A model generated the notes under the pieces. The model did no database searches. It was not told the DNA's origin and saw nothing but the letters and a program-made list of their open reading frames with translations. From Ruditapes philippinarum (Eukaryota): 64,000 bases of DNA. Below, piece after piece: positions 11,928 through 41,362 of this stretch; position 1 is the first letter of the stretch, and the number at the start of each line of letters is the position of its first letter. The DNA lies in contig NW_026861878.1 in the NCBI RefSeq assembly GCF_026571515.1, positions 1-64,000 of the forward strand. The letters run 5' to 3'. Both the position numbers and the translations under genes were made by a program.

Positions 11928-14900
11928 ATGGCAGCAGGTGGGACTCATGGAATATTTGATGACGAATCTTTGGAAAGACTTAAAAAGGTGTGATGTTTTA
12001 TAAATACTTTGCTATAGAAATAAATAAATCATGCATGCAAACATGCATGTAAACATGCAACGTTTTACACACTCTATTAACATACTTCTGTAGATGTACA
12101 TAACTATCAAGTTAGACACAGTTACGTAAATAAGAAGTATGTGTTGTTGCATTCATTAGACATTATATTTACCGCTTAATTATTGCTATGATTAGATTTG
12201 TGTCGTTTGGATCAATATTCGTTGACAACGTAGGCATTTTATGTAGTACATTGATTTAATTTAGTTTATATTTTCGGTTTTTAGCATGACGTTGTGCAGT
12301 TTGTATTGTGCAGTTTAAGTATAAATGTAAAGACCTGTTTATTGATCAAACTTCATATCAATCGACAAGTTTCGACTCTTTTCGTCTTACTTCGGTGTTG
12401 TACCTCGGCCCTTTCCGTGAAACTTCGGATAATTATTAATATTGGTTGATTGGTTTTGTTCATAAACTTACACGTTAAGAAGATTTAAATAATGATGAAC
12501 TGTATTTTATAAAATGGTGTAAATTTCAACTTCTGTACATAATTTTTTTGCTTAGTTTTATGGTTTTTACATATCTATAGTGTAGAGTAACATTGAATGA
12601 TATTTTGTGATTTTTCTGCTCCTTCATCAGTTTATAATGTTTCTGCTTGTTGGATCTCATTAATTGTAAATCATCATAATAAATAAAACATTTTTTTGCC
12701 TCCATATATTGCCTAATTAAATTTCCTAGTTACTTGATTACTATGCAAAAACTGAATTTGTTTCCAACAAAACTACACAATTGTTCCTGTGATCATTACA
12801 ATTGATCGGGCATTAGTTTGCAACCTCATCAATGGATTCTAATATTCATGTATTCAAATGTTAACAATACATTCGACAGATATCAAGAGTTATGTTTCTA
12901 TCAACAGTTACGCATTTACTCAACAATTTATTTATCTTACTAACATCTTAGTACTTTGTTTGTTTGTTTGTTTAATTTTTGAATAAGATAAGATAATAAA
13001 ATATAATTATATGTTTCTCTGAGCATTTTGTGTTGGTTAGATATAAAGATAGGTAACATTATATATTATAAGCATGTGTATAACTAAATAAATAAACTAT
13101 AATAACATACAGCGGAATGCTTTACACTCATCCCTTAAACTATAGCTTAGACCAAATGGATCCGCTATGTCTAAAAATTTAACTAGTTATACATATATTT
13201 TATTATTATTTTCCAGTTATTTATCTTACGGGGTAGATATTTTTTATTTTCTGGATAGAACGGAACACTTCAGATATTTTCCTTGCGTCCAATTATTACC
13301 TGATTAGGTTCAGTGGTTATCAGTGTTTTTTTGTTTGTTCTGTTACCAGTTTTATATTCGATATCCATCTGTTTATCTAATTTATGTAAGTAAGTTATTA
13401 AGATAAGTTGTATAACTATCTAATTTGGCAATATTAATTACAGCAGAATACGTTGGACATATCCCTCGCAGGGGCATGTAAGTTTACCAAAAAATACATG
13501 GAAGTGCACGAAACCTCCTATTTTAAGTCTTCTGCATACCATTTAAACTGAAGAGCTGATATTCGAGCTAGCGTAACTAAACATACTTTTAAAATGCATG
13601 GGTCAAACACCACTAAAATCATTTTACTTAGTAACTGAAACACAAAACATATACTTGCCACTGAAAATTGAAATATAAAATGTAGCAACTTTACAAATAT
13701 TTAGAATCTCAAATATCCACTTTAATTTCAGAATTGTCTCTTATTTGTAAATTTGACCTCGGCCAATTCGAAACTATCGCACCAAAACTGTGTACTGCTT
13801 CCATATTATGTACTAACTGCAACTGACAGTACACTATCCTACAATTTGTTCAATGTGAAGTTATACTATTACAGTTAAATAATGCTTTGGAGTTGATGTT
13901 TAGATATTTTTCAGATCCGCCGACTTCGTGAACTTTTTCATGGTAGATTTCCTGACAGCCAGTGTGGAACCTTGCTCAGGCATTTTAGATGGGACTTATC
14001 AGTGACAGTTTCTTTTGTTTTAGATGGTAAATAAATACTTTATTGTGATGAATAAAAATTTCTTTCCTTCCTAACTGATCTTATGGTAATCATACATATT
14101 TAGTTATAAAACATGAAGCACAATACGAAAACATCAGATCTCATTATTTTGAAACTCAAAATCAAAATCATGTGATATTGTACAAGCCATTTATATCGTT
14201 GATAATGATATCAATAATGATAACAGAAACATTAGATAATAATAATGTTACTGATAAAATAACCTTATTTTCCATTGATTAAGTAAAACTTTTAACTTAA
14301 AATTGAATCAGTTTGTATCACTTATCGTTGCTGTTTTAATGTTTTGAAACTGTAAATTTATTGTTACAGAAGAACCGAGGACTATTCGTGAGATTATTGG
14401 AGAGGACGAGGTTTGCTTATATTCTATTAACTTTTTTTCTAATCCATGTGTCTAACGATATATTATTTCATCAAGACTTTCAACAATAATACTAAACGTG
14501 TATGCCAATATATGAGTAACTGAAATGCCTGAATAAATTTAAATTCAGAATATTTCGTATTTAATTTCACATTAACTAAAGATAATTGAATATTGATTGA
14601 GTGGTTGATTTTTAGTGGCAGATCGTTACTGTGCGACGAGACAATGTCATACGGGACACAGCTAGGAGAAATGAAATTGGTAACGAGATCAGACAATTCG
14701 GGTGTAAAAATTGTGATAGCATGTGGTGGCGAAGAGTTCCTATTAGAAAACCAGTTCGTTTTCGTTATCTTATATAAATCAATGAATTTCATGTAAACAA
14801 AATCATAATCTTTTTTCATAAAACAATTTTGTCGCTCAATCTATAAGTTAATAGGTACTACAAAAGTCGTACTACGCTTTCTTTATTTTGAATTTGTATA

Positions 14901-16684
14901 CTTTTTCTTCTTAAGATTTAAGTCATTAATTCTTTTAAAGTTTTTGTTCATATCATTTAACTTTTCTTTATATGTTAATAGTCAGCATAATGTATTTTGT
15001 CAATTAAGGTTGCACGTTGCAATATGTGTAAAAGGAAACGGGATGCAATACCAGTTGACCAGGAGTACGGATGGGCAAGATTCCAGTGTTCGTGCTCTAA
15101 TGAATTTCAGTACGTGAATTTCTACCTGTTTTTACTTCGCTGTATATCGAATACATGTACTTATATATCACACAGCAACATTCTTTGCACTGTGATGTAA
15201 TAACTATGAATTCTTCATATTACAAAATATGTTTTTAAAACATAACGGCGATTTCATCATTTTAAGCGTTTCTGGTTTTAAAATATCAGCTGAAGCCTCT
15301 TGTGTTGCTATTTTATATAACCTTGTATGAAACAACATCTTAATTTAGCAAGGTGCTAAATAAATAAAGCATTTTACCCAACGATCTTAATCGTTTGTTT
15401 GATTTTACGATGCACCAACACAGTATAGGTCATATGGCACTGGAACAGGAAATATGAATTTGGCTAACCTCGGGTGTTACAAACGTCAAAGCAACACAAG
15501 GGATGAAAACAACCTCGCCTTGTTGAGCTAAGAGATGCTTAGACTCCAGATATTCGAACCCATTTAGTTAATTTACAGGCACTCGCATTATAGGAAACGT
15601 TTCGCTAACAATCCGTTATATTGACATTTTTAGTGCATTTGGAATGATGGACATGAGGCAGTTGAACATAGGACTAACTGGAAAAAGCAAGTGTTTGTGC
15701 TGGAAATGCAGGGTTAATCTTTGTGAGCCAATCTGCATCCTTAAACCATTGAAAAGAGAAGCCAGGCGGCGTCCAAGATATGCACATGAATGTACGGCCG
15801 CCAATTGTTATAACAGATGCTATCAACGTCAACGTAAGTGCATCATTTTAATGTTTAAAACAAAATATTTAGAAAACAAGTTATTTATCTTTTTATTTGA
15901 ACTAATAAAACGATAATTAAGATATGCATATGCATGACAGATATATATGATGTAAGTGATGAGTACAGCACTAACATTATATAATACATATATCAGTTAT
16001 GTTACATGCTATGCTTATTATGACAGGTAATGTACTTGTGATGGATTTAATAAAATTGAAAAAAGCCCTTTTCAAGTAAAGAATATATACATCGCTGTAA
16101 AATAACAAAAATCTCAAAATACATATGACTTTGAAATGAGATACACCATAACGCGGATGATGCATAAATTCTACATGTATTTATGAAAAGATAATTAAAT
16201 TTATGAATCTTGCAAAGCAGTCCAAGTTACTTTTATGACAAAAGATTATGTGTTATAGATGAATCAAGATTATGTAAACACAATAGTAATAAATAAAAAA
16301 TTATTTAGTTTTATGTATTTATTTATTTATATATTTTATTCATGGCATCGGAGATCAATTTTAAGATATTGTGTACATTGGTTATGATATGACTATACAC
16401 AATTACAATATTGCTTGACACACTAGATCTTCTTTTTTGCTTCAGCAAATGAACCTATTGTACCTTATTGTGTACATCCAAGATCGTTGCAATGCCAGGT
16501 ACCCGGTGACGGTAGTGATGACCACGTGAGCACTGGTTCCACGGTGAAAACGTTCCTGACCCAGGATGATCTAGAATCACCATTTTCACCATACGAACCA
16601 AGTCTCGCGGATATTGACGAGACGAGAAGCGAGAACAGCGGTGGCGGCCCTGGTAACCGCAATGGAGATGGAGACAACTATTAA
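11928..16684 (+). CDS. SHFL: Shiftless antiviral inhibitor of ribosomal frameshifting homologue, copy 1 (296 aa, 7 coding exons)
   Basis: Exons 11928-11987, 13915-14026, 14370-14410, 14616-14753, 15009-15109, 15634-15833, 16446-16684; all GT-AG, 891 nt, open. Motifs match remembered human SHFL: IRRLRELFHGRF (VRRLREKFHGK), RQFGCKNCDSMWWRRVPIRKPVARCNMCKRK ([31 protein letters not shown]), [31 protein letters not shown] (HISSGSTVATCLSQ), acidic tail. Confidence 0.92.
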
Positions 16685-17172
16685 ATTACATATCTAATTG
16701 GCATTATTATATTGTATTGAGTTGTTTTATTATTAATAAGGGTTGTAAGTAAGTTATATGTTTGATGTAATCAAGCAAAAAATCATGTAATGTAATGCTC
16801 TGTTTTTGTTCTTTTCTTTCTGTTTTGGTGTCTTTATATTGGTTTGTTGAATGCTGGTAAGATTGTATGTAAATAATTATACATTGTAGTTTTTATCCGA
16901 ATTCAATTATTAAACTCAACTGTTTATGTGATTTACAAAATAAATCCTTACAAAAATGACTCATATTTGTGGTTGTTTGGTCCATTTTTCATGTCATCAA
17001 AGTAAACAAGTATCCCTGTAAGAATATATATAAGAACATATATACAATGTATAATCAATGGAAATGTTCTTATTGGAAGAAAACATCCAGGTTCTTAAAA
17101 TCATCGGGCTATTACAAAAAGCTATTTGGTGTGTAAAAATAAGTTTCATCGTGTCTCACTTCTCTTAAATCA

Positions 17173-18458
17173 CTGTCTCACCAAGCAAGTTTGAAGATCA
17201 TTATAAAAATGTGGCCTAATAATGCTCTAGAACTTTGAGTCGACTCAAACTTATCCCGTTCTCCAACAACGCCCTTAAAACGACTTTAAACGAGAACGCA
17301 ATAACGTGATGGGCCCGGGAGACGATAGACCGTATAATAGTTTACACTTGTTTCATTTGAAAATTTTTTACTCCTTTCACAGACAAACGTAACTCGGACG
17401 TTCTTAGAGCGTCGTTATCCCGTCTACATTAAAATTTCTGTACAAGTTTGCAGCACGTTTTTATCCAGTTCTAAACGTTCAAAATAGGTTTTCAGTACGC
17501 TCAACTCGTTTATTGCGTTCTTAAAGCAGTTATAACAACGTCTTCCCCGTTTCCGTTTTCAGTACAATTGGACCAAGAAGGAATAAATAAAGGCCGCTCT
17601 TTCATTGGTTCACCATTGAAAAGAACCATGAAAAATCTAGCAGCTGTAAACTACTAAATATTCAATTGATGCATTTTTGTTGGAATAAAAGCAAGAATAC
17701 AATGAGAAGGTAGACAATAGAGAAGACGAAGAACGTGTTGGATGAGGACCAGTTTGCTTTACCCTCCTCATCTTTCTTAGAGGAATGATGATAACAAATG
17801 TCGCCGGTTAGATGTAAACGGTCGAATTAGAATGACTGGCAGAAACATGCTGATGTGTTATAGCCTTTAAGCAAGGACGTGATTGTAATAAAGATATGAA
17901 CATTAGAAGCGCGATGATAACGTTGTAATAACGTTCTTAACTGTCTACGAACGAAGTTGCAAACTAGTTCATGTGGTATGTTTCGAAATTTAAAATTTTA
18001 ACACTTTCATGTTTAAATGTTAAATTCTGCTTAAGCCGGTGCTAGGGGGCGTGGACAGTAGTTTGCACTCGACAGTACCGTCCCCGAACATGCTCAATCA
18101 GATCGAGCCTGCAACATTTTCGATTTTGCCGTTTTGGACTTTCTTTAAAGGATTCTTAAGTTCTCTATTTAATACAACGTTCAAGGAACGAAGTAGAACA
18201 AATGATACAACCGATTGCAGACGACCTTAACTGATTAAAGACGATGTTACCGGGCATTTTAACCAGATTTAAACGGACCTCAAATTGGATAAAGACAGGA
18301 TGGACGTATCACTAACGCTTTGTGAACTATTTGTAATCACTTTGAAGATATTTTCCGGCGACATGTACACAATGTATACGTTTTACCTAGACAAGAGTCT
18401 GTTCAATGATATATTGAGGAACTGGTCAGGCGTGTTCAAAACTAATTTGGTGTGACAG
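17173..18458. mobile_element. Degenerate non-autonomous TIR transposon (Harbinger-like)
   Basis: Imperfect inverted termini ctgtctcaccaa...gtttgaa (from 17173) and ttcaaaac...ttggtgtgacag (to 18458); interior enriched in aacg/cgtt motifs. Confidence 0.45.
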
Positions 18459-18599
18459 CAACATTACGTTGAAAGGTTTAATTACTTTTTTACAAATATC
18501 TGACTTAGACCAAGTAAGCTTTCGGTCGATGGGCCCCATCCGAGCCTGAAAAATACGAGATTGGGGCAATTTGTAATGCAATATGAAGTATATTTTCTA

Positions 18600-19545: not shown

Positions 19546-19767
19546 ATCTATAAAAGAAACAAATATGATAATAACCCAAGGAGAATAACAAGATTATACC
19601 AATCGCCAGACTGTGTCAGACTGTGTATTTACATACATTCGGAACTTTGCCTGGTTCGGACTAAATGATGTATTTCTCTCCCTTTATCTGTACTACGCCA
19701 TTTGTTCATATTAAATCACGTATTTGATTATACTCTTGTGTGTTGATCTACATCCATTTTCCTGGCG

Positions 19768-19778
19768 TGGTGGCAGCG
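19768..19778 (+). promoter_or_regulatory. Primer binding site complementary to the tRNA-Leu 3' end
   Basis: TGGTGGCAGCG is the reverse complement of ...CGCTGCCA-CCA (tRNA-Leu AAG/TAG type, from memory). It begins exactly where the two LTR-end copies stop matching. Confidence 0.65.
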
Positions 19779-19872
19779 AATTTACGTCCCACGCTCGATA
19801 AAGACCTGTGTACGTCATCTCGTAATAGAATTATTACCGTGAACGCAAGTGTATTAAACAAAAACATTGACA

Positions 19873-22041
19873 ATGGCAAATTCTACCCGCGCGCCAAAAC
19901 AATGGTGCCTTACCAAACATGAAACTGTAAACTCATTTGAAAACTGGAGACAGAACTTAATCTACAGCCTTTCTTTAGACAAGAACTTTGCTCCGTTTCT
20001 CGTGGCTGGGCTTAAATGGCAGAAAAAGACCAAAACTGCACCCCACAGAGGCTTTGTGAACGACGGTGAGGATGTAGCCGAAGCTGACAGGAAAACCCGT
20101 GAGCAAAAGGTCAACATTCTTGAGTTGATGTTAGGACAGATAGCAAATTTTTGTCCAGTAATATCCAGAAACACTATTGTTAAAAACTCTACCTCCGTTG
20201 ATGATATTTGGCAAACAATCCGCCTCCATTACGGTTTCCAAATTACTGGTGGCCATTTTATTGACTTTGATTCTATCCGATATGATCCTACAGAGAGACC
20301 CGAAGATTTGTTCCAACGACTCACCGCATTTATTGAAGATAGCTTGTTACATCAGGATATGGGCATCAAACACCACGACGAACCGATAACCGAAGATGAG
20401 CAGCTCTCTCCAACGCTTGAAAATCTAGTTGTCTTAACATGGCTGAGACTGATAAACCCTGACCTACCTAAACTTGTCAAACAGAGATACGGTACTGAGT
20501 TACGAGCAAGAACATTAGACTTTATAAAACCTGAAATTTCGCAAGCACTGGACTCACTTTTAGAAGAGTTGCGTTTAGCAGAGGATGCCAAAACCATGAG
20601 AACAACGGTCAGAAAATTTCCACGACAAAAGCCGCAGTCAAGTCCATCTTGGTCTAAATCCAACCAAAAGTCGTGTCCGCTTTGCAAAGCCGCAGGACGT
20701 CCTGATCGCCACTTCCTTAGTAAGTGTACTTATTTGCCGCAACAAGACCGACAATTTTTGGCAAGGGCCCGCGCTACATGTATTGATGATATTCCTCTTG
20801 ATGATTCTGAGTTAAACCATCCCGATGAAGAGTTTCGACAAGTGTCGGTATCTACTAACCGTGTTCAAGTTCGACAGTCTCCTTATCTTGACACTTACTG
20901 TGGCCATATTCCGATTCGTTTAACTGTTGACAGTGGCGCCACCGGTAATATGATTCGTGCATCAACTGCAGCACAATTGAACGCAAAAATCACCGCTAGC
21001 TCCCAATCTGCTCACCAAGCCGATGGTTCCTCTCCTTTAAACATTGTAGGGGAAACTAGGATAACATTTACACGCGATGATCATAACCTGTATTTTGAAG
21101 GGTTAGTTGTCGAACACTTAGATACAGATGTTTTGGCCGGTATTCCATTCATGGAGGTAAATGACGTTGCCACACGACCAGCTCGTCGTGAGGTGTCTAT
21201 TGGAAATGACCACATATACTACTACGGCTCGCCAAGCACTTCAGCCCCAAATCACGCTATTCGTCGTGCTCACGTCGCACGTGCTCCTTCAACCTCAATT
21301 ACGCTGTGGCCCGGAGACTTTATTGATGTTATGTTACCGTCTGACATGCGCTCCACAGACAACATCTTTTCGGTTGAGCCTCATACCAGGGACTTGGACA
21401 ACAACTCTTGGCCGCAGCCATTTTTGGTTTCAAGTTTAGGTGGAAATTTGCGAATACCGAATTTATCAAATGAACCAATGCTTCTTAAAAAAAATGAACA
21501 TTTTTGTCACGTACGTGCTACTTACTGTCCTGTGGGGAATGAATCTGAATCAAAAGCTCTACCTAATTCAGCAAATGCAAACATGAAAAAGTCAACACAT
21601 TCCGATCAAGTCCGTGTCGACCCAGATAACTTATTGTCAACAGGTATGAGAGATCAGTTTAAATCGCTACTTATAAAGTATGATGACGTCTTCAATCCAA
21701 ACTTTAAAGGTTATAATGGTGCATTGGGTCCATTGGAAGCGAATGTGAATATGGGTCCGGTGCAGCCTCCTCAGCGAAAAGGACGATTACCACAATATGC
21801 AAAATCTCAGTTATCTAGTCTCCAGGACAAATTTGACGAACTGGAACGTATCGGTGTCTTCAAACGCCCCGAGGAGTTGGGAATCACAGTCGAGTATTTG
21901 AATCCGTCCTTTCTTGTAAAGAAACCGAATGGTACTTTTCGACTAGTCACAGCCTTTGCAGATGTTGGTAGATATAGCAAACCTCAACCGTCATTGATGC
22001 CTGACGTCGATTCAGGCAAATTGCGCATTGGAAGTATATAA
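19873..22041 (+). CDS. Gypsy polyprotein part 1: Gag, aspartic protease, N-terminus of RT (disrupted)
   Basis: ATG at 19873 ([11 protein letters not shown]). Zn knuckle [18 protein letters not shown], protease LTVDSGA, RT start [16 protein letters not shown]. Confidence 0.85.
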
Positions 22042-24335
22042 TTATTACTGACTTGACTAAATCCTTTTACCAAATTCCACTGTCAAAAGACTCCATGAAG
22101 TACTGTGGTGTATCAACTCCGTTCCGTGGCGTAAGAGCTTATGTACGTTCAGCACTGGGAATGCCTGGTTCTGAGACAGCTCTTGAAGAACTCACGTGTA
22201 GAGTGTTAGGACACCTAGTTCAAGATGGTACTGTTGCTAAAATCGCAGATGATCTGTATTGTGGCGGAAATACACCAGAGGAGTTGCTCACAAATTTCGA
22301 ACGTGTATTGGAAGCGCTTCATTCATGCAGCCTCAATTTATCAGCTACTAAGACTATTATCGCACCTAAACAAGCATCAATTCTCGGCTGGTTATGGGGA
22401 CAGGGGAGTATCCGTGCAAGTCCTCATCGTATTTCAACGCTTTCTACATGCCAACCGCCTAAAACTGTCACTGCTATGCGCTCATTCATAGGCGCATACA
22501 AAGTGCTTTCTCGGGTCATTAAAAACACATCAGAAATACTATCTCCTTTAGAAGAAGTCATAGCTGGAGGTGAATCAAATGACTCTATTGTTTGGACTGA
22601 CGACCTAGTAAGTGCGTTTTCTAATGCTCAAAAGGCCTTATCTTCCAATCGCTCAATAACACTTCCCCGTCCGTCTGATCAACTATGGATTGTAACGGAT
22701 GTTGTTTCGAAAAGCAGAGGTCTCGGGGCTACTCTTAACATCAATAGGAAGGATAAGCTTCATGTAGCTGGTTTTTTTAGCGCAAAACTCCGTCAGAACC
22801 AGAATCGTTGGTTACCATGTGAAATTGGGGCCTTATCAATCGCTGCCTCAATAAAGCACTTCAGTCCCTACATTATCCAATCGTCCACATCTGTTGTGCG
22901 TCATATTACTACTGAGGATGTTCTTAATGGAACCGTAAAATGTCCGTTTACAAGTAAATCGGCTTGGTTATCTATTCAATCAGAGTGTGCTGATCTCCGC
23001 CGTACTGTTGCGCATCTTCGCCAAGGCACAAGACCTTCGAAGAAGCTTACAAATGTAAAAGATATAAAGCGATACTTAAACATAGCCTCACTCTCTCGAG
23101 ATGGACTCATTATTGTTAAAAGGAACCTGCCGTATATGCCAAGTCAGGAATGTATTGTGGTTCCCCGACAAGTTCTCGACGGACTTTTGACCTCTATACA
23201 TATAAAGTTGGGACACCCTTCCGTCAGCCAATTAAAATCCGTCGTACAGAGGTACTTTAATGCTTTGGATATGGACAAATCATTAGACATGGTCACTAAA
23301 GGTTGCCATCAGTGTGCATCCCTGGCAAAAGCACAAAAAATGCGGGATGAGCAAAGCTCCGAAGATCCACCGGAAACTGTTGGATTGGCTTTTGCTGCCG
23401 ATGTAATGAAGCGGGAACGTCAACTCGTTTTAGTAGTTCGAGAATGTGTTACCTCGTTTACATTCACAAAGTTGCTAGAAAGTGAGCGTCATCATGACTT
23501 ACGGGATGCTATCATACAATTATTGGCAGAGGTTCACCCGCTGGATGGTCCGTACGCTGTGATTAGAACCGATCCAGCTCCAGGTTTCAAAGCATTGGTA
23601 GATGACCAGTTGTTAGCACGACACCATATATCAATAGAGTTAGGACGTGCCAAAAATCTCAACAAAAACCCGGTCGCTGAAAAGGCTATACAGGAATTGG
23701 AGGGTGAAATTCTTAGAGCAAACTCATCACCTCATCAAATACTAACTCCCATGAATCTCGCGATAGTAACCGCCCGTCTTAACACGCGCATTCGCAAACG
23801 AGGCTTATCTTCCAGAGAAATGTGGATGCAAAGAGATCAGTTCTCAAATAGACAAATTCCTGTAGAAGATCAAAAATTAATATCATCTCAACAAATTCAA
23901 AGATCGACAAATCATGTACAAAGTGAAAAAGCAAAATGCCCTTCAAATCAAACTCCGGTTACTCCTGATTTAAAAGTAGGCGATATTGTTTATCTTCGAA
24001 AAGACCTCAACAAAACAAATGCTCGAGAAAGATACATTGTAGTGACCTTGGAGTTTCCATGGTGTAATATTCGTAAATTTATAGGTAACCAGCTCAGGAA
24101 CAATTCCTATCGTGTTAAGTGTTCCGATTGCTTCAAAGTAACGACACATTTCAAAGCTTCTACGAAAGAATCCCCGATTGAGTTCGACTCTGACGAAGAG
24201 AGCGAAAGGAATAAGCAAGAGTGTGTTGATCTACATCCATTTTACTGGCGAATATTCTGTTTTCTGCTGCATGTGATATTCACATCTTTCATAAACAAAA
24301 ATGAAACAGTTGATAGTTGTTGCGAATTGAAATGA
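22015..24335 (+). CDS. Gypsy polyprotein part 2: RT, partial RNase H, integrase (disrupted)
   Basis: The frame continues [23 protein letters not shown] from about 22015. Motifs: ALGMPGS, KIADDLY, RNase H WIVTD, integrase HIKLGH...[24 protein letters not shown]. The tail reads through the LTR remnant. Confidence 0.85.
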
Positions 24336-25058: not shown

Positions 25059-28000
25059 ATGGCAGAGGGTGGTGACAATATTGGGGACGGGGTTGGGGCT
25101 GATATAAATGCAGACGATATGGAGAAGGTTAAGAAGGTAAATATTTATATAAATTTAGCTTGTTTCTGAGTTTGTTTCAGCCATTGCTTCTCTTGGTGTC
25201 ACCAAGTTATTTTTATTATTAACTTGTTAATTTTCTGACACAGTTGTTAGTTTGTGGGTGTAGTATTACATTCAGATCAGTCAACCTTTAATTGGTAAGG
25301 TGCTAATTCCTGTAAATCGAAAGTTGATGTATTTATATTTTGATATTCAAACCGAAAGTAGATATTTCAACGGCGACTCTTTAAAGGCCTCAACAAACGG
25401 TAGGATTTTGAAGTACAACACCAAGTACAGGCAAATCTTAATGTGTGCAGGCTACTATTTCTTGAATTCGGAAACCTTAAGTCTAGATGTAAGGGATGGG
25501 ACATGTTCTATTTTGAAAATGTTGTCGTACAGATTTCTACAGGCCTCCCACAATGACAAGTAACAGGTTACCAAATTATCTCCTGATAATGGGTGCAATG
25601 AATGAAGTTCCAGAACAATTATGGCTAAAAGGTAAACATAGTAGTAAGATGGGGTAAAAATAAAGTTAAAAAACTCTTCAGGAGACCCAAAGTTGTGGTA
25701 TGTTCAAATCCCAAGTTGTTTCGAAAATGATTGTCACGGTATTGAACTGTTCTCTAATTAGGGCAGGGGAGGTAGTTTGTAGGAGGCCGAAGAGCTTAGT
25801 CAGTAGAGCCGCAGTACGGTATTCCGAGGGTCCCAGGCGTGAGTCTTGGTCAGGCTTCACATTACAGTTTTTTTTTTTAAATGGAGGTGTTTCAATCATT
25901 ACTCATTGCAAAAAAAGTAAAAAGTATTTGGAGAGTAAAGTATGTACATGATCAATGTAAAGCGATCCAAATTTTTAGGGAAACCTCAGATGATTCCTAC
26001 AGTGTAGAATTACCGTCTGCATGCAAGTGTCGTATTGCTTTGAAAATTGTACATCTTATCTCTAATTAGTGCTGTACAACTAAATCCTACCGTCTGTTGA
26101 GGCCTTAAGACAATCAACGACTCTTTAAGACAATTTTACAGAATCTTTTTATTTAGGTTTATATAATTAAGTTAGTTGTGTTGTAAATGCGGTGTTAAAA
26201 TGGTTCTGTTTATAATTACATTGATCCATTGGACCATAAAAGGTCGGTCTATATAACAAAATTAAAACTATTGCAGTCTTGGAGGGAGACACAGGCAAAA
26301 TTTTCATTTCTTAGTTTTGAAATTTTCATTCATTATTCTGTAAATGTCCTTAAAATGAATACACTAAACAGTCAAAGGAACAAAACTTTTCTCCATATAA
26401 AGAATAAAATGGTGTTTTCCTAACTTGACCCGCGTGGGTCAGGTTAGAGGGCTAAAATTTCACAATAGTTGTCACTCTGTACTCTGGAAACGTTAAAAAA
26501 CATGTCAAATCAATTACTTAGACTTGTTTCAATCATACAATATCCACAATATTTGTTATTGTAACTTCCAGGGTTTGTTCAAATCGCATGACTTGTTTTT
26601 AAACTATTCGGTGATTCTGTTCCTGTCAAAATTTCGTTCAACATATATAGATATATTTAAACTTCAAACCCAAAATATATAGAATTTATACAGAAATTCA
26701 TGTTGGGACTTTAAGAAATGTCATTTTAGGGTGATTTGAGTACAGAAAATCATTTTTATATTTTTGCCATTATTTTGCCTGAGTATCCCTTTAAATGACT
26801 TTGGTAATTTTTTACTCCCGGCCACCCACCAAACCCCGATAGTATCTAACGGTTTACATAGCAACTGTTTTATTGTTCCATTACTCTTTTTAGCATGTTT
26901 AATAACGTATGCTATAAGTTATGCATATAAAGCTATATTCGGCGAGTCTGGCGGAATTTTACTACCAATCGCACTCACTCGACCATTTCCGTCAAAATTC
27001 GGACATAATAGTAAAGATAAGGTAGTTCGGTCTATCTAAAACATGTTGTCTAGATCTAAAAGGGCAAAACGTATCGGTGTAAAAGCTTTTGCATTGCAAT
27101 GCAATGTCATAATACATCTACTTACATTTATTACTACAACATTTATTTGACACAAGTAAAGTTGTGAGGACAAATTTATCTAAGATGTTTTATACTAACA
27201 GGTACGCAGGCTACGTGAATTATGGCATGGGCGTTTCACAAACAAGAATATCGCAACATTACTAAGGCACCATGACTGGGATGTGGAGGCCACGAACTTA
27301 TTTATCTTGGACGGTAAGTTTACAGCTATTCTATATTTTATGCACTGGTATATTCTACAAATGAATCTGTTTTATGTTGTTGTTTTTTTATGAAAAGGTG
27401 CGAAACAAGAATCTTTTGACGAAAGTTGAAATAACTAGACAAAAACAAAAGATAACCAACTACCTTTTAAAATGATGAAATAACTAGACAAAAGATAACC
27501 AATAACTCGTACACCTTTAAAAACAGGATATATACGTTTAAACTTCATGCTAATTATATATCTAATTAGCACATAATCTATTTGTAGCTTTACCTGGTGA
27601 ACTTAGAGACGTGCTTGGCGGAGAAGACGTAAGTTATCATAGATTATCAAGGCAAACCACTGTAAAACACTGTATTGTAATTCTCTAAAGAATAGCTATA
27701 AACTGTTTTTATTGTATTTTTATCTTTGTTTTTAAAGTATATGTATGATGAGACTGTAATAACAAAAGTAAAGTCTAACTTCCAAAAGATAACTCATAAA
27801 TACCCTGTAAATACAAACAATCCTACTACAATTGAAACTGAGCGATTGTTAAAAGCAATATTACTTTCTTACGAGATGTTAGACAGTCAACAACATCCCT
27901 AGACTGTTAACAGAGAGGCTTAGTTATAATTTTCAAAGTTTATTAGCATTTGAAAAAATATTTGTCGACTTTGAATGTTTTATATATAGGTCATATACCG

Positions 28001-30253
28001 ACTTTTAAGGCAACATAATATGTACTAGACTGAATGCATTTATGAGTGTTAAAGACATTTTGCATAAGTCAATTGAAACTATAGGTTTCCACACACTTGC
28101 GGAAAAGCGAGAACTTTAAAATTTCCAAAACATCCGGAAAAGTCATCACCTTAGAAGCACAGTGAGATTATAAAATTCACTCATAGAATTGCACATATCT
28201 CCTGCTATTTTTGGCAACCAAAAAAACTTTTCAAAGCGGCCCGACAAAAGAGGGGACAGAAAGGAGGTAAAACACCCCCGCCCCGCTATCCCGGTCGTCG
28301 GATACCCAGGTTGATACACATGTTATCACTGATAAATGTTAATGGTTTGCCCGTATGTACCCGACGATGCGCTATCCATAGTACTGTGTCAGGGTGGGGG
28401 AGTGGTTACAATTTACTGATACGTTATGATATATTCAAATAATTATCAAATAATGTAGGATAAGTTTACATTCAAATCAACTCATACAAAATTACTTATT
28501 CGATCATAGCTAGCACACTCATTAGGGAGACTTGTTGCTCTACGAGGCTAGAATTAAAGCTCAATTATGGGAAGTTGTTCAGAGATATTGCTCTATTAAG
28601 GACCACTTTGCAGAGGTTACAGTGTATATCAATATATGTTAATATTGTATAAAACTTTACTGTGTTTCAGTGGCACCTTGTTGAAAATGTTCGTCGAAAT
28701 GACGTTCTTCGAGATTTAGCGAGACTTAATCGTATAGGTCATGAAGTAAGGCAGTATGGCTGCCAACCTGATGACAATATGTGGTGGAGACGTGTACCGT
28801 CTAGAAAACCAGTAAGGAACCTATATTTTTGTATTCGTATAATTTTAAAGTATTTCCATTTACTTGCTTTTTTTCTCTTCATATTTTCAATTTTTTGTTA
28901 TTATTAGTTTTGTGCCTTGCTTTTTCTTGCAAGCGTAAGCAAGTGCAATAGTGTGTAATATATATATATATGATCAGTAAAAATGTATATCAAATTTCAC
29001 GAGATTAGAGTTTCCATTAGTTTTACTTTTGATTCCATTTAAGGTTTCACAGTGTAAACGATGTAGACAAAAATATGAGCCGATACCAAGAGACCAGGAA
29101 TGGGGTTGGGCTAGGTTTGAATGCATATGCGGACATAAATTCAAGTATGTGATACGAAATGTTAACGCGTTATTTCTTTTAATAACCTATTTAATTGTTG
29201 TGTTATTCGTTTTCTTTATTAATAAGTAAACTCACATTGGTTTCCCCCTTGTTAAATTTTAATTAGAAATAAGTATTCTGGTTCAAAGCCTGATTTTACA
29301 CAGTTTTGTTTATTCCACTAAAACATTTTGTATTACGATGACAATGTATCTGCAGTTCTATTTACAAAACCGATTTCCTTTTAAATGATGTAAAATTTGT
29401 TAAAAATCAAAATGAAAGAAGTACTCTCTTACAGAAAACATGAATGTATATTTATGTAAGAGTTGCTTTTTGAATAATTGTAGCGCATTTGGAATGATGG
29501 ATAAAAGTCTATTGGGGGCCCGATACGCTGGGAAAAGTCAAAGTTTATGTTACACCTGCATGTCCCAACTATGTGAGCCAATTCAGATTCTTCCGCCGGC
29601 GAGACGTCGTCGAGACGGAGATGGTGACATGGGAGATGGACGTAATGGCAGACGTAGACCTCGCAGATACACTCATAGATGTACTGCACAAAACTGTTTT
29701 AACAGATACGTCCCCGATCCAAGAAGTATGATCACAAAGTTACACTATCTCAATCATTTGATTTCATGTACATTACTTATAAAAAGAATAAAGCAATAAA
29801 GCAAAGGCACTGTTAACAAGTTTTGAAAACGATTACAAAAGATCGATTTCATCTCATTGCACATGTCTTGTCACCGAATTCAATTAATTAACTGTTATAC
29901 GACAGATTGGAGTGAGTATAAAAACACAAAGAAAAATAAAAAGAGTATATCTTTAAAGAATGTTCAACTATTATTAATACAGTAAACATATTGTTATAAT
30001 GGAAAGTTTAATGACACTACTAAACAATCGTACATATTTTTGTTATTTACCTACAGGTAATGAACCGCTCGTGCAGATCTGCGTCCATCCCAATTCTTTG
30101 GAGAACAAAGTGCACGGGTTTGGCAGTAATCGTCACGTCAGTACAGGATCTACAGTGAGAACATTTCTGTCACAAGATGACCTTGAATCCTCGTACGAGC
30201 CAAGTCTTGCTGATATAGACGAGATAGATGAAGAAAACAGGGATAATGACTGA
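25059..30253 (+). CDS. SHFL: Shiftless homologue, copy 2 (303 aa, 7 coding exons)
   Basis: Exons 25059-25136, 27202-27313, 27588-27628, 28671-28811, 29044-29144, 29484-29725, 30057-30253; GT-AG with the same phases as copy 1; 912 nt open. Motifs [62 protein letters not shown]. Confidence 0.92.
25385..26105. mobile_element. MITE with TTAA-type flanks (Kolobok-like) in SHFL copy-2 intron 1
   Basis: TIRs aggcctcaacaaacggtaggattt (from 25385) and aaatcctaccgtctgttgaggcct (to 26105), flanked by ttaa and taa. Confidence 0.7.
25786..25858 (+). repeat. Degenerate tRNA-derived sequence nested inside the MITE
   Basis: ggccgaagagcttagtcagtagagccgcagtacggtattccgagggtcccaggcgtgagtcttggtcaggc has tRNA-like spacing and an A-box-like D arm, but the B-box is broken. 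Confidence 0.4.
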
Positions 30254-33200: not shown

Positions 33201-34242
33201 GCTGTGTGTATATGGACTTTGATTATTGGTAAAATTTATATTTGACTGTTAAAATCTCATTAATAATGAATGATCAAATGTCGCCAAATGCATATAAATA
33301 AATAGTGACAACCCTAAAACAATAAGAAGTGAAACCGAAATTACATAATTGAATCGATGCATGCTTAATAATACAGCATATACAATGTATATAATTATAA
33401 GTAAAAATAAGCTTGCCGCCTCTCAAATATCATTCTATTTTCGGAAATTTTCATTTTTATATTAACCACAAATTATGGTCTTGCGTCATTTTTTAACCCA
33501 CTTTCAATGTAAAAATGAAATATACGTTACAGAAACATACGTTATCAACTTTTTAAAGTAAGTTTATCAAAAGGGAAATTGAAGTCAGAAAGCACGTATA
33601 ACAGCAACATTAACTTCTATTTGACATTAGTAAGTAAATTTTGTTAACTTTGGTCGAGTTTTAACTTGTTTAAGTAACCACAATGAAACAAACGTTACTT
33701 TTATCAAAAAGACTTTATATTGCTTACACATGCATATATAAAAACATAAAATCGCATTTTTATGACAATAGAATGATGTACATTTGATTCCTAAATAAAA
33801 AAAGTCGATTTTACATGTAAGTTTCAATTCCGTGATAAAGTTCATAAATAAGCGTGTTTGAAACATACGTTACTCCAACTTACAATTCAATAATTTTTGA
33901 AAATTAAAGATAAAGTTGGGATTAGCATGCCAGTTAGTAACGGTTACTTTGTATTAGATGTAAGAAGATACAATATTGTTTTTACAAAGGAAAGATATGT
34001 TAATAATATGTTGATGTACCAGCAGAAATGTTAAAAATATATTACAAGATATTGATGTTCTCAGCAACAACTAATTCGTTTCTGCAAAGAGCTTACTGGC
34101 CGTATTTCATTCTATATATAATAATGTTAGAATTATATCCATAAATATAAATTATTTTACAAAAAATAAAATTGTTTTCTCAGCCTTTACTTGCATTTGA
34201 ATAAAATGAAACATACGCGACATCCTATATGGGGATAAATAT

Positions 34243-35796
34243 AACAACAACAACAACAATACATTTTATTGATTTGACCAGTTACAGATCATCATCATAC
34301 AAATTCCATTGACATACATGTATACGTGAAAGTAGAAGTGTAAAATAAAAAAATATATATATAAAAAGAAAAAGAAATATTGATTATTATCGCTCCACGA
34401 GTGTTAAATGGAGGTTGAACATTGTATATATAAATTCCTGCCATCGTACAGTACATACAGAATTGCAATAATATCATATATTTAATTAAGTTTGCTTTTT
34501 AGTTAAGTTGTATAGTTAAAGAGTTTACAATAGATTGTTATAATTCTGCAAGAATATATTGAAATACAAAAACGAAAATATATTTAACAAAAACTTAGTA
34601 AAATATACTGCATTGTATCACCAATTAACTAGAGTCTTGCGCAATGCAAAAGCTTCATATATAAATTTACCAAGATTTAGCAGTGTATGCCTATTAGAAG
34701 ATTGCATCAATTTAACAAACTTATGAACACTTGGTCTATTATAAAAATATGGTTTAATGAAACGTTTTCTAAAGTGTAAATAAATCGGACATATTAACAC
34801 AAAATGGTATTCGTCCTCTACATCATTTTTATCACATAATAGACATAAACGCTGGTTTCTATCCACACGATTTCTGCCATGCCTACCAACTTCAATATTC
34901 AGCTGATGAGACGAAAGGCGTAATCGAGATAGAACAGTTCTAAACTTACTAGGAAGAATATCCAAATACATTTCAAAATCGACTGATCTTTTAAACTCTT
35001 TATATAAAAACAAAGAGCCGCTCAATGCAATTTGGTTACACCAAGATTGTTTAAAAATATCAAGCACCCTTTCTTTAAACAATAGATGAAATGTTTTAAG
35101 ATTTACACAATCTGGATTGTGAAACACATGTGAAAACCCATGACTGTCTAGTAACTTTTTAACATTTACAAGCCAATTAGTTTTACATTTATTTAGTTGA
35201 TTCACCATGTCTGCATAAATGTAATTTGAAATAATGTTTTTACTTTGCACAAGATTGCACCAAAACTTAATAATACGACAATACCGATTGACAAAAAGTG
35301 GATAGCGTCCTAGTTCGCTATAAATAGCTAGTTTACTAGTGGATGTCTTCACATTTAAGACACGCCTACAAATATTGAGATGGACTTTCTCAATATTATA
35401 AAAAGTACCATAGCCCCAAACTTCGCAAGCATAGTTAAGGATCGATCCTACAAAAGCGTCAAACAGTTGACATTGAATTGAAGGCGCGATAGTAAATTCT
35501 TTAAATTAATCAGCAGTACATTTAAAGCCTTTAAGCCTTTACCAATTAGTGTATCTTGGTTTACTTTAAAAGAGCCGTTGTAAGAAAACACAGTGCCAAG
35601 GTAATTAAAATTATCGACAACTTCAAGAGAGGAGTTCGCGTAATGCCAGTGCTCGTCAGGTCTTATATTACCTCGCTTACGGAAAACCACAACCTTAGTT
35701 TTTTCAGTATTGACAATAAGACCCCAGCGATCACAATATAATTTTAACAAGTCAAGCTTGCATTGAAGATCAACGGGAGTATTACCAAAAAGCACC
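34243..35796 (-). mobile_element. 5'-truncated LINE (CR1-like) remnant
   Basis: RT C-terminal region (VLFGNTPVDLQ, WGLIVNTEKTKVVVF, FNYLG) and C-terminal RLRLSSHQLNIEVGR...CLLC...EDEYHFVLICP. The 3' end has AATAAA and a (TTG)n tail at 34243-34270. Frameshifted. Confidence 0.85.
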
Positions 35797-36852
35797 AATA
35801 TAGAACTGTTTAGCAATAAATTTTTCAAATATTAAGAAAGTGGAAAGTTGAATGTTTTGAAAAGAAATTGCTAATACAACATTTGTGTATGCATTCGACC
35901 TCTCATATATTATATATGATATATATCCTTTGAATGAAGACATAAAATAATCATTTCCAAAATTGACTATTTTTGCTTTCTACGAATATTTAACTTTGAA
36001 GAAATTAACTGAAAATTAGCAAGGTACCCAACTTCCTTGAATTTTCTTGGGTTAGAAAGTCCCTCTAGATAGAGAATTTACAGATTTTGATATATTTTAC
36101 AGACATTTGTTATTAATATGCAGCCAGTATGTTACATTATTAGATCTGAAATCTACGTTACCGAAGAAATACAGTGTCATTACCGAAATAAATGCCATCC
36201 AGTTATATTATAGTTTCTTGTTCAAAATATTTCTGGCAAACTTGCAAAATACCCTAAACTTTTACTTCAGCGATAGAAAATGACACAATGACAACATCAA
36301 ATTTTTAATATTTTTCAACCTCAAATGCTTTATTTTATTGAGAATGGGCGAATATCGTGCACTTACAACTGCAGATATGAAATATGTACGTTATTATGAT
36401 GGGTGTTGAACAAGTATCTGTTCTGTTCTGTTCTGTTCTATAAAACGATTTGAAAGGTGGAATCATTAGCTCCTTAATATAGATATTTCATACAATAATT
36501 ACACTGTCAATTCAACACTTATTTTATTTTCAAGTATTTTTTTTATTTTGCCTTGTCCTAGATAACTGCATTATTGATTTCCCACTATAGCAATCCATTG
36601 TCAACCACAAATCAATCTATAGATTTATGAAATGAAATAAAAAAAAAATGCAATGCAAATATTTTTATCTTTGCGTATAACCGGTGAATTCATGTACATT
36701 TGTATATTTGAATCAATTCAGCTCAAAATAGTTTTCAATTTTTTATTTGTAAGCCATTTCAATGAATGTAATAGCTTTATGTTAAATGCTGTAATTCAAA
36801 ATTGCTTATTCAAAACAGATTAGTTGAATAATAATACATATATAAATAGAAA

Positions 36853-39800
36853 ATGGCAGAGGCTGGTGACAATATTGGAGACGGGGCTGGGGCTGATATA
36901 AATACAGACGATATGGAGAAGATAATGAAGGTAACTTTTGATTTAAAAAAATAACATTGAATCGTTGTTTATTTTGATGTTAACAAGTACTTTTAGTAGT
37001 CGTTTTTGTAAAGTGAACGTTTAAATAAACATTAAGATTATTCATCCATATTACACGGAAGGTGTTTTATGTCAGAAATGGGCTAAATCGAAAGCTGGTG
37101 AGTAGGTAGCTTATGTTAATACAATGGCACAGATTAAACCTTTAATACTGCATTACTGAATTCAAATCAAATTTTCGACATTAAATAATATCTAAAGGCA
37201 TGTTTGGTGATATGGTGACATGTCCGGTGTCCGTACTTCTGATTAGGCGGATTGCCCCATCATTAAGCATAGAATAGAACGATATCACGTGGAGACAAAG
37301 TAAAATAAATATGTATATCACTTTGTCCCTTAAAAATGACTTTTTTACGTTATTTGCGACATTTCAAGCGAGACTGGATAAACAAATATTTTGATTTACG
37401 AGATCATTATTATATAAATTAATATTTGAATTCATTTTTTTCACCATAAATAGTGTATGTGAATTTGTCTTCTTCGCCAATTTTCATATATTCCATGTGT
37501 TGACACGGTGCTTCCAGCTTCGTCGATGATAATTTGCAATGTTAAGTTTCACGGTGCGTAATCGTTCCGGGCTTATTTGGAATATTTCCCCGTTCCTGAA
37601 CTGATTCGGATTTTTTTCACCGGATTAATTCAGATAAATTGGATTTTGAGCTTGACAAGGGAAGAAAATATATAAAACAAACATATTTACCACTGTTAGT
37701 CTTTGAATATGCTAATTGCACGGAACATTGCAATGTTTAAGGAATTCATATACAACTTTATAAGGTTTGTTAAAGGTCTTTTATCAGTTTGAATCGAAAA
37801 ACAAATTTCACATGTCAGTGAAGTAGTCGTTAACACTAGGATAAAATTGCCAAAAAAGTCATTATCATCCTTATTTTTTCAGGTATTTCATGATTATATT
37901 ATAGAAAAAATCATTCCGCAATAATTTAGTGGTTTTTAGTAAAATGATTTGCCCGGGAAATGAATTTTTAGGACATAAGCCTGCAATCAGCGCTTTGCCT
38001 TGTTTTCCTTAATACGAATCAATCCAGTGCCCTAAAAAAATTATGAGGTTGTCATAAAAGTACGTCCTACAAATTCATTACTGGACAAAACATTTTACTA
38101 AAACCGCTAAATTATCGACGAAAGATTTTTTTCTATAATATGATCCTGAAATCTTTTAAAAAAAGATAATAATGACTTTTTGGCAATTTCATGCTAATGT
38201 GTACTACTACTTCACTGACATGTGAAATTTGTTTTTCGATTCCAACTGATAAAAGACCGTTAACAAACCTTATAAAGTTGTATATGAATTCCTTAAACAT
38301 TGCAATGTTCCGTGCAAGTAGAATATTCAAAGACTAACAGTTGTAAATATGTTTATTTTATATATTTTCTTACCTTGTCAAGCTTAAAATCCAATTTATC
38401 TGAATCAATCCGGTGAAAAAAATCCAAATCAGTTCAGGAACGGGGAAATATTCCAAATCAGCCCGGAACGATTACGCACCGTGCGTTTAGGACACGTAAA
38501 TGTGTGTTGGGATTATTTACCCTCGCCGCCGTTGTAAAACCATATGGACGAACAAGTACACATATAATTTCTAATTGCCGGATATGTATATGCACGAGTT
38601 AGTGTTGGGTGTTTTACATTACAGGTACGCAGGCTACGTGAATTATGGCATGGGCGTTTCACAAACAGGAATATCGCAACATTGCTAAGGCACCATGACT
38701 GGGATGTGGAAGCCACGAACTTATTTATCTTGGATGGTAAAATACAACATTGCCATATTTTAAGCGTTGCACGCATCTAATACTGAATGTATCTATTTGC
38801 TATATTTAAAGTTGAGAATAATATTATGCTTGTAAGTGTAAAAATTTCCAAGGAGACGATAAACAAAATCGTATCATTCACTCTTTAAAACAGGGTAGAT
38901 CTGTATAGTTTACATTATGTTTAATCTCCTGATTATATTAGAGATGTTCATTATCTTTATTCCAGCTTTACCTGGGGAGCTTAGAGACGTTCTTGGGGGT
39001 GAAGACGTAAGTATTCTGTCAACATGAATAGTTTTGTAAAACCGCCACTTAAAATACCTACTTACAAATACAAGAACGCACTTTAAATTTTATATTCGGT
39101 CCAATAGTTGTGTCCGTCCGGTTAGCGTTGTACTATGAATCGGGCGACCCATGTTGGATAATGCAGGAGACTTTCGTTCTGATTGATCATCGAATTCTAC
39201 CGCAATGATTTCGTGCGAAAGTGAAAGCCACTATTACTAGTAAACTGCTCGACTGCCTGCGTAGAAACGATGCTGTGTGTGCTTAGCGCCGTGATTAAGG
39301 TGGTAAACTATCAACACCACCTGCTGTTGAACATGAAGAAACATGAAACTATGAAAATAATTTCATTTCATCCTTCTAACTTGAACAGATAGGCTTAATT
39401 CTAATTTCTAAGTTGTACATACAGTTGATTAACTTGAGTCTTTATTAAAAGATGTACGTAGGAAATGTCTATGCGCAAATCAATAGATATATCAATATAT
39501 ACATATATGTAAATCATGTGTAACAGTTTTCTTTGTTTCAGTGGCACCTTGTTGAAAACGTTCGCCGAAATAACGTTCTTCGAGATTTAGCGAGACTTAA
39601 TCGTATAGGTCATGAAGTAAGGCAGTATGGCTGCCGACCTGATGACAATATGTGGTGGAGACGTGTACCGTCTAGAAAACCAGTAAGGAACCGATCTTTG
39701 TGTCTATGTTCTTTATTCCTTCTATTGTTTTGTTTATATGTCAGTGTAAATGTGAGAGAGAAAGGTTAATTGTGTAAAAGAAAGGATACTACAGTAAACT

Positions 39801-41362
39801 GTATTCACATCAGTAAAAATGCGTATCAAATGTATCAAATTTTGCATAGCAAACATTGTTTAGTTTAAACATATTTTATTGCATTAAATGCATGTTTACA
39901 AACATATCATACAAATAATGAGCAAACATTGTTCTAAAGATAATGTAGTCTTTAATTTAATTTAAGGTTTCACAATGTAAACGATGTAAACACAAATATG
40001 AACCGATACCAAGAGAGCAGGAATGGGGTTGGGCTAGGTTTGAATGCATATGCGCAATTAAATTCAAGTAAATACTTGTTTTAAATTGATCTTTTTCAGG
40101 AGTCTTGATAAATATTTTGCCGTTTATGTCGTATTTTAAATTTTTCTAAATGACTGATTTTGGGACAGATATATTCAATACAAACTTATTGTTTTATACA
40201 TCTTATACATACATTTCTTGAACATCTATCGATACTTTAATTTATTTAAATATAATAAATTTGAAGCCATTTTGTATTAACAGATAGTATCTTTTCAGAA
40301 GAAAGGTATTACTAGTAAAAGATACAAAGATTTAAGTATTGAAATCGCATACTTAGCCATTATAGAATGCATGTCTGTACTTTCCTTTTTGTATCTGTAC
40401 AGCGCTTTTGCAATGATGGATAAAGGTCTACTGGGTCCCCAATACATTGGTAAAAGTCAAAGTTTATGTTACACCTGTATGTCTCATCTGTGTGAGCCAA
40501 TTCAGATTCTCCCACCAATGAGACGACGTCGGAACATAGATGGTGACGAAGAAGATGGGCGTAACGTTGGCAACGGATATGGGCGTAACGGTGGTACTGG
40601 AGATGGGCGTAACGGTGGTACTAGAGATGGGGGTAACGTTGGCAACGGATATGGGCGTAACGGTGGTACTGGAGATGGGCGTAACGGTGTCAACGTATAT
40701 GGGCGTAACGGTGGTACTGGAGATGGGCGTAACGTTGGCAACGGATATGGGCGTAACGGTGGTACTAGAGATGGGCGTAACGGTGGCACTGCAAATGGGC
40801 GTAACAATGGCAGGGGAAATAGGCGTAACTGGTATGACAGACGCAGGCCTCGCAAACATACCCATAGATGTACTGCCCCAAACTGTTACAGACGATACAC
40901 CCCCGATCCAAGAAGTATGATCCAATAATTTAACTTTATTTGACTTATAATGACGATACACTTTTAAAAACGTTTTGGTTACTTAACCATTCATAAGTGA
41001 ATAAACACAATAGTATGACTTTGTAAGCAGTACAAGAATGTCACAGTGTCACGTGATGATAATAGTAAGCAACTATATTTACAAGTAATTAGTGCAGTAA
41101 ACATTAATTTTACGGTATTTCCTTATGATCTTGCCAATCAGTTATGCTTTTCTTTGAAGGTCATGAACCGCTCGTGCAGATCTGCGTCCATCCCAACTCT
41201 TTAAAGAACAAAGTGCATGGGTTTGGCAGTGATCGTCATATAAGTACAGGATCTACGGTGGGAACATGCCTGTCACAAGATGACATCGACGCCTCGTATG
41301 AGCCATGTCTTGCTGATATAGAGGAGGCAGACGAGATAGGTGACGACCAAGATAATGCTTAA
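36853..41362 (+). CDS. SHFL: Shiftless homologue, copy 3, with Gly/Asn/Arg/Asp repeat insertion (395 aa, 7 coding exons)
   Basis: Exons 36853-36930, 38625-38736, 38966-39006, 39542-39682, 39967-40067, 40403-40914, 41160-41362; GT-AG; 1188 nt open. HISTGSTVGTCLSQ closely matches human HISSGSTVATCLSQ. Confidence 0.92.
37550..38483. mobile_element. Foldback MITE with ~425-bp inverted arms, CACGGTG termini (Transib-like)
   Basis: cacggtgcgtaatcgttccgggct at 37550 and agcccggaacgattacgcaccgtg ending at 38483. Arms match to about 37975 and 38064. Flanking 5-mers are agttt and cgttt. Confidence 0.8.
40550..40830 (+). repeat. Coding tandem repeat (24-nt units encoding DGRNGGTG / GRNVGNGY)
   Basis: Repeated atgggcgtaacg(gtggtactggag|ttggcaacggat) units, about 11-12 copies, in frame in SHFL copy-3 exon 6. 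Confidence 0.95.

Follow-up and report, generated by a model that had tools for sequence, protein, structure and literature searches.

Shiftless (SHFL; also C19orf66, RyDEN or IRAV; Pfam family PF15135, Shiftless/UPF0515) has been studied almost wholly on vertebrate proteins, and so have the questions of how it recognises the frameshifting ribosome and of whether it began as an antiviral factor or in general quality control. The human structure (PDB 9KBO) consists of a helical bundle, three zinc fingers (ZF1, with ligands C112/C115/C132/C135, ZF2 and ZF3) and a phospho-loop (S249, T250, T253, S256), and five residues, R13, R97, R138, R198 and K227, are needed for inhibition of -1 programmed ribosomal frameshifting (PRF) (PMC12716391); residues 164-199 are also required (PMC9324250; PMC9230503). 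A literature search with subscription journals and bioRxiv supplements outside its scope found no study of molluscan SHFL, the venerid RefSeq entries carry automatic names with no study found behind them, and six terms relating to clams or to frameshifting are all absent from the molluscan RNA virome paper PMC13469297. Here we describe a tandem array of three SHFL genes (g1, g2 and g3) in the clam Ruditapes philippinarum, located in a stretch of 64,000 nucleotides (contig NW_026861878.1 of assembly GCF_026571515.1, positions 1 to 64,000) which we call the window. The array is real and correctly identified, and it belongs to a known family; it is not a new kind of system, since RefSeq already lists these genes as SHFL homologs and molluscs commonly have SHFL in several copies.

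The three genes are all on the forward strand and have seven exons apiece, with exon boundaries read from the window:

11928..16684, + strand: g1, SHFL paralogue of 296 residues (exons 11928-11987, 13915-14026, 14370-14410, 14616-14753, 15009-15109, 15634-15833, 16446-16684)
25059..30253, + strand: g2, SHFL paralogue of 303 residues (exons 25059-25136, 27202-27313, 27588-27628, 28671-28811, 29044-29144, 29484-29725, 30057-30253)
36853..41362, + strand: g3, SHFL paralogue of 395 residues (exons 36853-36930, 38625-38736, 38966-39006, 39542-39682, 39967-40067, 40403-40914, 41160-41362)

All 18 introns are of the GT..AG type and their phases (0,1,0,0,2,1) are common to the three genes. The proteins are 57% (g1-g2), 52% (g1-g3) and 85% (g2-g3) identical, and their C-terminal tails differ. 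Residue for residue, g1 corresponds to RefSeq XP_060556637.1 (P0004), g2 to isoform X4 (P0011) and g3 to isoform X2 (P0014), so that the exon boundaries and the RefSeq identity bear out the original prediction, made from the letters of the window, of three seven-exon genes with shared intron phases and open frames of these lengths. RefSeq names all of them 'shiftless ... homolog' (5 entries, XP_060556637-41) and files g2 and g3 as a single gene with isoforms X1-X4, in which X1 and X3 have the first exon(s) of g2 (exon 1, or exons 1-2) joined onto g3.

The proposed SHFL identity was confirmed by the family profile: PF15135 gives 128, 139.8 and 132.9 bits for g1, g2 and g3, for a curated cut-off of 29.8, and when the pieces encoded by exons 4 to 7 were compared alone, 12/12 matched and 4/12 exceeded the cut-off. 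The predicted models of g1 and g2 match human SHFL 9KBO, with its bundle of helices and its three zinc fingers, and the structural alignments give 31-38% identity to the human protein. All three are therefore members of the Shiftless/UPF0515 family. Their parts follow one another as in human SHFL: the N-terminal helical bundle comes first, then two CCCC zinc ribbons, an HCCC loop, a Ser/Thr phospho-loop and, last, an acidic tail; the WWRRVP-type motif of ZF1 is shared as well. They differ from it by the presence of three tandem copies, by ten extra residues inside ZF2, by a Cys-to-Asp change in ZF1 of g2 and g3, by about 90 extra repeat residues in g3 and by a compact, putatively UBA/CUE-like N-terminus, of which vertebrate proteins match just the first 30 residues or so. 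The family counts 395 representatives at E up to 0.001 and extends to a sponge and an amoebozoan (P0215); at the same threshold, viral structural homologs were sought and none was found.

Evidence for splicing was taken from sequencing-run contigs, of which 5 of the 24 listed runs were compared with the g2/g3 region; X19 is the sole run recorded as RNA and the RNA nature of the others is guessed, but the GT..AG joints show splicing. All six introns of g2 are present as such joints, and so are introns 2, 5 and 6 of g3 among the joints listed (there are nine further ones). For g1, the support comes from P0016 and P0017, two Logan proteins of full length whose contigs do not exceed 1121 bases, and expression of the array is thereby supported for each gene. 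The assembly is split into 15,874 contigs, no single read was seen to reach across g2 and g3, and their exons 2 and 4 are 96-97% identical, which could suggest two alleles falsely tandemised during assembly. This explanation is extremely improbable: for four of the six introns the alignment is no better than with shuffled sequences and for the remaining two it is confined to 23-46 nt adjoining exon 4, the flanks do not align, the proteins have diverged by 15% with a synonymous divergence (dS) of 0.32, and both the g2-type and the g3-type exon 6 are present in 4/4 runs. Thus, as had been proposed, g2 and g3 are paralogues and not haplotypes. With a nonsynonymous divergence (dN) of 0.085 for this dS, the pair is, judging from the substitution rates, under purifying selection, and the lower synonymous divergence of exons 1-5 (0.15, versus 0.38 for exons 6-7; Fisher p 3e-4) could stem from partial gene conversion.

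Another arrangement is implied by isoforms X1 and X3 of RefSeq, in which g2 and g3 would belong to a single transcription unit, sharing their 5' exons and using 3' cassettes alternatively; two proteins, P0002 and P0013, equal g3 except for g2-type residues in exons 1-2, and a joint 28811-39967 exists in 2/4 runs. We nevertheless consider it very unlikely, since an exon 1 with intact ATG and GT donor is present in g3 itself, exons 1-5 of the two genes are 88-97% identical, so that short reads and contigs cross-map, and the same data yield an impossible backward joint from 40916 to 30060. We attribute both cross-gene joints (28811-39967 and 40916-30060) to cross-mapping among exons that are nearly identical, and discounted them. 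The contig depth is seemingly higher over g2 exons 1-3 than downstream, and exon 1 of g3 is nearly uncovered; as contig depth cannot rank genes or parts of genes, we conclude from this neither on an unseen further paralogue nor on an inactive promoter of g3. For farmed bivalves, the array represents a gene family of candidate antiviral function, of which the current annotation counts too few copies.

Human positions were mapped onto the clam proteins through the vole protein P0121 (offset +5) and the 9KBO alignment. The position at which the zinc ligands of the three genes differ is the second ligand of ZF1:

14712..14714, + strand: g1 Cys104, second ZF1 ligand (human C115), intact (from sequence and mapping)
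28770..28772, + strand: g2 Asp111, replacing the second ZF1 cysteine (human C115) (from sequence and mapping)
39641..39643, + strand: g3 Asp111, replacing the second ZF1 cysteine (from sequence and mapping)

The first gene keeps 12/12 zinc ligands (C101, C104, C121 and C124 in ZF1), and the CCCC and HCCC ligands of ZF2 and ZF3 are complete (8/8) in all three proteins, while ZF1 of g2 and g3 holds three cysteines and Asp111. Because their profile scores, their fold and the other 11 ligands agree with SHFL, we treat g2 and g3 as variants inside the Shiftless family. Among 86 family rows, the column of this ligand contains Cys in 78, Asp in 6, Asn in 1 and a gap in 1; the Asp rows are g2, a g2 allele, two Mercenaria proteins and two Logan proteins. 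The Asn belongs to the SHFL of the scallop Ylistrum (P0044), which lies outside the clam g2 clade in the tree, and its sequence points to a second, independent loss of the ZF1 ligand. The CxC first knuckle of ZF2 was also considered as a special trait and was rejected, being common in invertebrate SHFL rows. The phospho-loop residues (S249, T250, T253 and T256 in g1) are kept in all three proteins, phosphorylation itself being a prediction only, as are the phospho-loop contacts R121, R126, K127 and H244 and the pair W119/W120. The K10 equivalent is Met in g3.

Two insertions lie in or beside the region equivalent to human residues 164-199. The first, of about ten residues inside ZF2, is found in g1, g2 and g3 and in 20/86 rows, the named ones being all Venerida or Myida. 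The second is specific to g3:

40553..40829, + strand: tandem array in g3 of a 24-nt unit (x 11.5) that keeps the reading frame and adds to the ZF2-ZF3 linker a low-complexity stretch rich in Gly, Asn, Arg and Asp

This array encodes 11.5 repeats of eight residues, with 37 Gly, 20 Asn and 19 Arg among the 106 residues of the insert region; g2 has one similar unit, and the Mercenaria g2-type proteins are without the array. Its flanks are present in contigs of runs X15 and X18, as loose contig ends. In run X18, a contig end in region 40557-40583 carries a different unit after the first g3 repeat, which suggests that the array varies between individuals. The ligand change in g2 and g3, the repeat insertion in g3 and the differing tails, all put forward in the original prediction, are thus real features of these proteins.

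The history of the array was approached with a tree of 29 chosen bivalve rows (LG+G4 model); an earlier quick tree had dropped 8/71 rows as partial or very divergent. In the main tree, the partners of g1 are two Mercenaria proteins (100/99), those of g2 and g3 (100/98) are two other Mercenaria proteins (100/98), and a tree holding g1, g2 and g3 together is rejected (p-AU 6e-86). From this phylogeny, the split between g1 and g2/g3 is older than the Ruditapes-Mercenaria split, g2 and g3 separated after the Mercenaria divergence or have been homogenised since, and the array arose through two tandem duplications, one after the other. The cysteine persists in P0034, which belongs to the g2 clade, and therefore the Asp arose after the first duplication. 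The Mercenaria homologs in RefSeq (XP_045156455, XP_045156456, XP_045216253, XP_053396506) include both g1 and g2 types. Multiple copies are found elsewhere, with the reservation that some of the counted ones may be isoforms or alleles: Mercenaria has 4 accessions, 3 of which share a contig; the 5 clusters of Dreissena lie on one contig, as do the 3 copies of Mya; Mactra has 2 locus tags side by side, Sinanodonta 4 copies, Potamilus 3, Pinctada 2 and Mytilus galloprovincialis 2, and among snails Bulinus has 3 and Gigantopelta 2. Judged by these counts, 2-5 SHFL copies are usual in many bivalves and some gastropods, and the expansion, first taken to be local, is not special to the Ruditapes locus. 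It happened repeatedly, because the copies of Dreissena, of Mya and of the unionids fall into clades of their own. Such lineage-specific clades suggest the birth-and-death evolution that had been envisaged, but the decayed fourth 5' fragment on which that idea was based was found neither in the window nor in genome searches. In the window, per-exon nhmmer and a six-frame family hidden Markov model gave exactly three matches per exon, and with exon-specific protein profiles the next-best scores were at the level of the reversed-sequence control; in the genome, searches with exon 4 and PF15135, in which the best candidates were scored, gave significant matches only at g1, g2 and g3, plus one match with a stop elsewhere at E 0.46.

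As for function, the reading we favour, with a probability of roughly 0.55, is that all three proteins are Shiftless-like restriction factors which bind RNA and ribosomes and curb recoding or translation of foreign RNA, g1 being the predicted canonical copy and g2 and g3 predicted retuned versions. By analogy with human SHFL, phosphorylation of the Ser/Thr loop would stabilise the zinc-finger fold, the clam proteins would bind structured RNA and ribosomes, and frameshifting or readthrough would be suppressed, so that translation of foreign RNA would be curbed and an antiviral role would follow. The changes in g2 and g3 would alter the choice of target or the strength of the effect, and not the fold, because they are situated in ZF1 and the 164-199 region. 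These genes thereby offer natural, selected variants at the very sites mutated in human studies.

Several points weigh against this reading. The literature yielded no functional, induction or localisation data for any invertebrate SHFL; SHFL gene names are absent from the supplements of the challenge studies PMC7064767, PMC6182001 and PMC7430831, which may use other gene identifiers; patterns resembling the interferon-stimulated response element (ISRE) are not enriched (9 found for 6.1 expected, with 18/100 shuffles reaching 9); and no sign of positive selection was obtained, the synonymous sites between g1 and g2/g3 being saturated. Xenopus SHFL does not restrict hepatitis C virus (HCV) in human cells (PMC10433982), meaning that SHFL activity is not simply transferable between species. 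Replacing all four ZF1 cysteines of human SHFL abolished ribosome binding, binding of the frameshift RNA and Gag-Pol suppression (PMC11055011), and since this human mutant is inactive, the single Asp of g2 and g3 could be a loss of activity instead of a retuning. Moreover, at the five positions needed for -1 PRF inhibition a basic residue is present at 4/5 in g1 and clearly at 2/5 in g2 and g3. The R13 and R138 positions are basic in the three proteins. R198 falls in an Arg-rich patch, with Arg in g1, His in two g1 alleles and Pro at that register in g2 and g3. Running contrary to the favoured reading, the residue opposite R97 is non-basic in each of the three, and the K227 position, Arg in g1, is Asn in g2 and g3.

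These replacements lead to an explanation that we judge doubtful, in which g2 and g3 would have lost frameshift inhibition and would now act in frameshift-independent RNA decay, in granule control (with the g3 repeat as a condensate-forming segment) or as partners or decoys of g1. Human ZF1 mutants that have lost PRF inhibition keep some antiviral activity and still co-precipitate with the wild type (PMC11055011). The Cys-to-Asp change in ZF1, together with Gln at the R131 position and Asn at K227 in g2 and g3, would fit such a loss, as would the Gly, Asn and Arg content of the g3 insert. On the other hand, Asp is able to ligate zinc, ZF1 of the g2 model has a predicted local distance difference test score (pLDDT) above 90, though this model is alignment-driven, the Mercenaria orthologues keep Lys at the R131 position, and the K227 column is variable across the family, with Lys or Arg in 45/86 rows.

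A further alternative would make the clam proteins factors of constitutive translation quality control which clear spontaneously frameshifted or stalled ribosomes, the extra copies reflecting the general rate of duplication in bivalves and not an immune specialisation. Expression of human SFL is constitutive, and genetic interactions connect it with ZNF598, ASCC3 and Hbs1L (PMC10747187), and mouse Shfl is only weakly induced and is highly conserved; the clam transcripts come from runs that were not selected for infection, the ISRE count shows no enrichment, and the family reaches the amoebozoans. We still hold this alternative to be unlikely, if worth serious attention, in view of a ligand change that has been conserved, of insertions concentrated in the functional core and of independent expansions in several lineages, which exceed what dosage needs would call for.

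The N-terminal bundle deserves separate consideration. Its core is encoded by exon 2:

27202..27313, + strand: g2 exon 2, encoding the core of a putative UBA/CUE-like helical domain at the N-terminus (residues 16-65 or so, to which the last part of exon 1 and exon 3 also contribute)
13915-14026, + strand: equivalent of the g2 exon 2 core in g1
38625-38736, + strand: equivalent of the g2 exon 2 core in g3

This bundle looks like a UBA/CUE-like domain, being likened to the UBA of Nxf2 and of TNK1, the UBA-like domain of ARIH1/2, CUE1 of SMARCAD1, the CUE of ASCC2 and the Pfam family UBA_4 (PF14555). The accessible part of the human SHFL structure paper, with its supplementary alignments outside our scope, does not mention such a likeness (PMC12716391). 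The SHFL of Dreissena, the zebra mussel, contains four tandem copies of the N-terminal UBA-like module (P0043, P0177). The four-repeat fragment P0177 had no UBA match in PDB or Pfam, and the UBA reading is weakened by this. A UBA/CUE-like N-terminus suggests a link to ubiquitin-marked collided ribosomes. One could push the idea further and see in the bundle an unrecognised UBA/CUE module, best preserved in invertebrates, that docks SHFL on ubiquitin-marked stalled ribosomes, the molluscs possessing a multi-copy recoding-surveillance arsenal in which the ZF1 and linker variants of g2 and g3 would read different frameshift or readthrough signals without the vertebrate interferon system; this scenario is speculative and we regard it as rather improbable.

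Some members of the family present unusual architectures. In P0209, P0225 and P0215 the SHFL core is fused to a 3'-5' exonuclease domain (PF01612), one of them being from the amoeba Balamuthia, and these sequences hint that the core may be tied to RNA decay outside animals. In the sponge Halichondria (P0228), SHFL is fused to ZU5 and Death domains, an architecture of the immune-signalling type. Finally, in the predicted protein P0149 the C-terminal half of SHFL is joined to a Mutator-like transposase, which may be a gene-model fusion.

The remainder of the window contains neighbouring genes and repeats:

4194-7204, - strand: gene of a secretin/adhesion-type G-protein-coupled receptor (GPCR), located upstream of g1; two of its coding exons are very long (7tm_2, E 5e-15)
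45396-47008, - strand: glyoxalase-type exons, downstream (E 1.5e-4 and 0.03)
55711-55992, + strand: GST_C_6 exon, downstream (domain match)
19738..24335, + strand: Gypsy-type long terminal repeat (LTR) retrotransposon between g1 and g2, in the order protease, reverse transcriptase (RT), RNaseH, integrase, with the frame broken inside RT
34618..35831, - strand: RT-bearing fragment resembling a long interspersed nuclear element (LINE), between g2 and g3 (RVT_1, E 6e-4)
44-626 and 60546-61144: dispersed repeat pair, 77% identical
42773-43560 and 48117-48915: two tandem repeat arrays

The neighbours had been predicted as GPCR, MCEE and MTX1 around SHFL; the GPCR, glyoxalase-type and GST_C_6 exons were all matched, and we take the glyoxalase-type exons to be, presumably, MCEE and the GST_C_6 exon to be, presumably, metaxin. 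The Gypsy element retains a 30-nt terminal repeat remnant and has gag, protease and the start of RT in a single frame. It was considered as a local -1 PRF target and rejected, there being no canonical slippery heptamer at the RT frame break; neither this element nor the LINE-like fragment is part of the SHFL system. Contigs in 2/4 runs skip the LINE-like fragment (34243-35797, joint 34237-35797) and run X17 covers it, so that it may be polymorphic. Its flanks (about 33060-34240 and 35800-36350) have contig cover in several runs and could represent either a non-coding transcript or a repeat.

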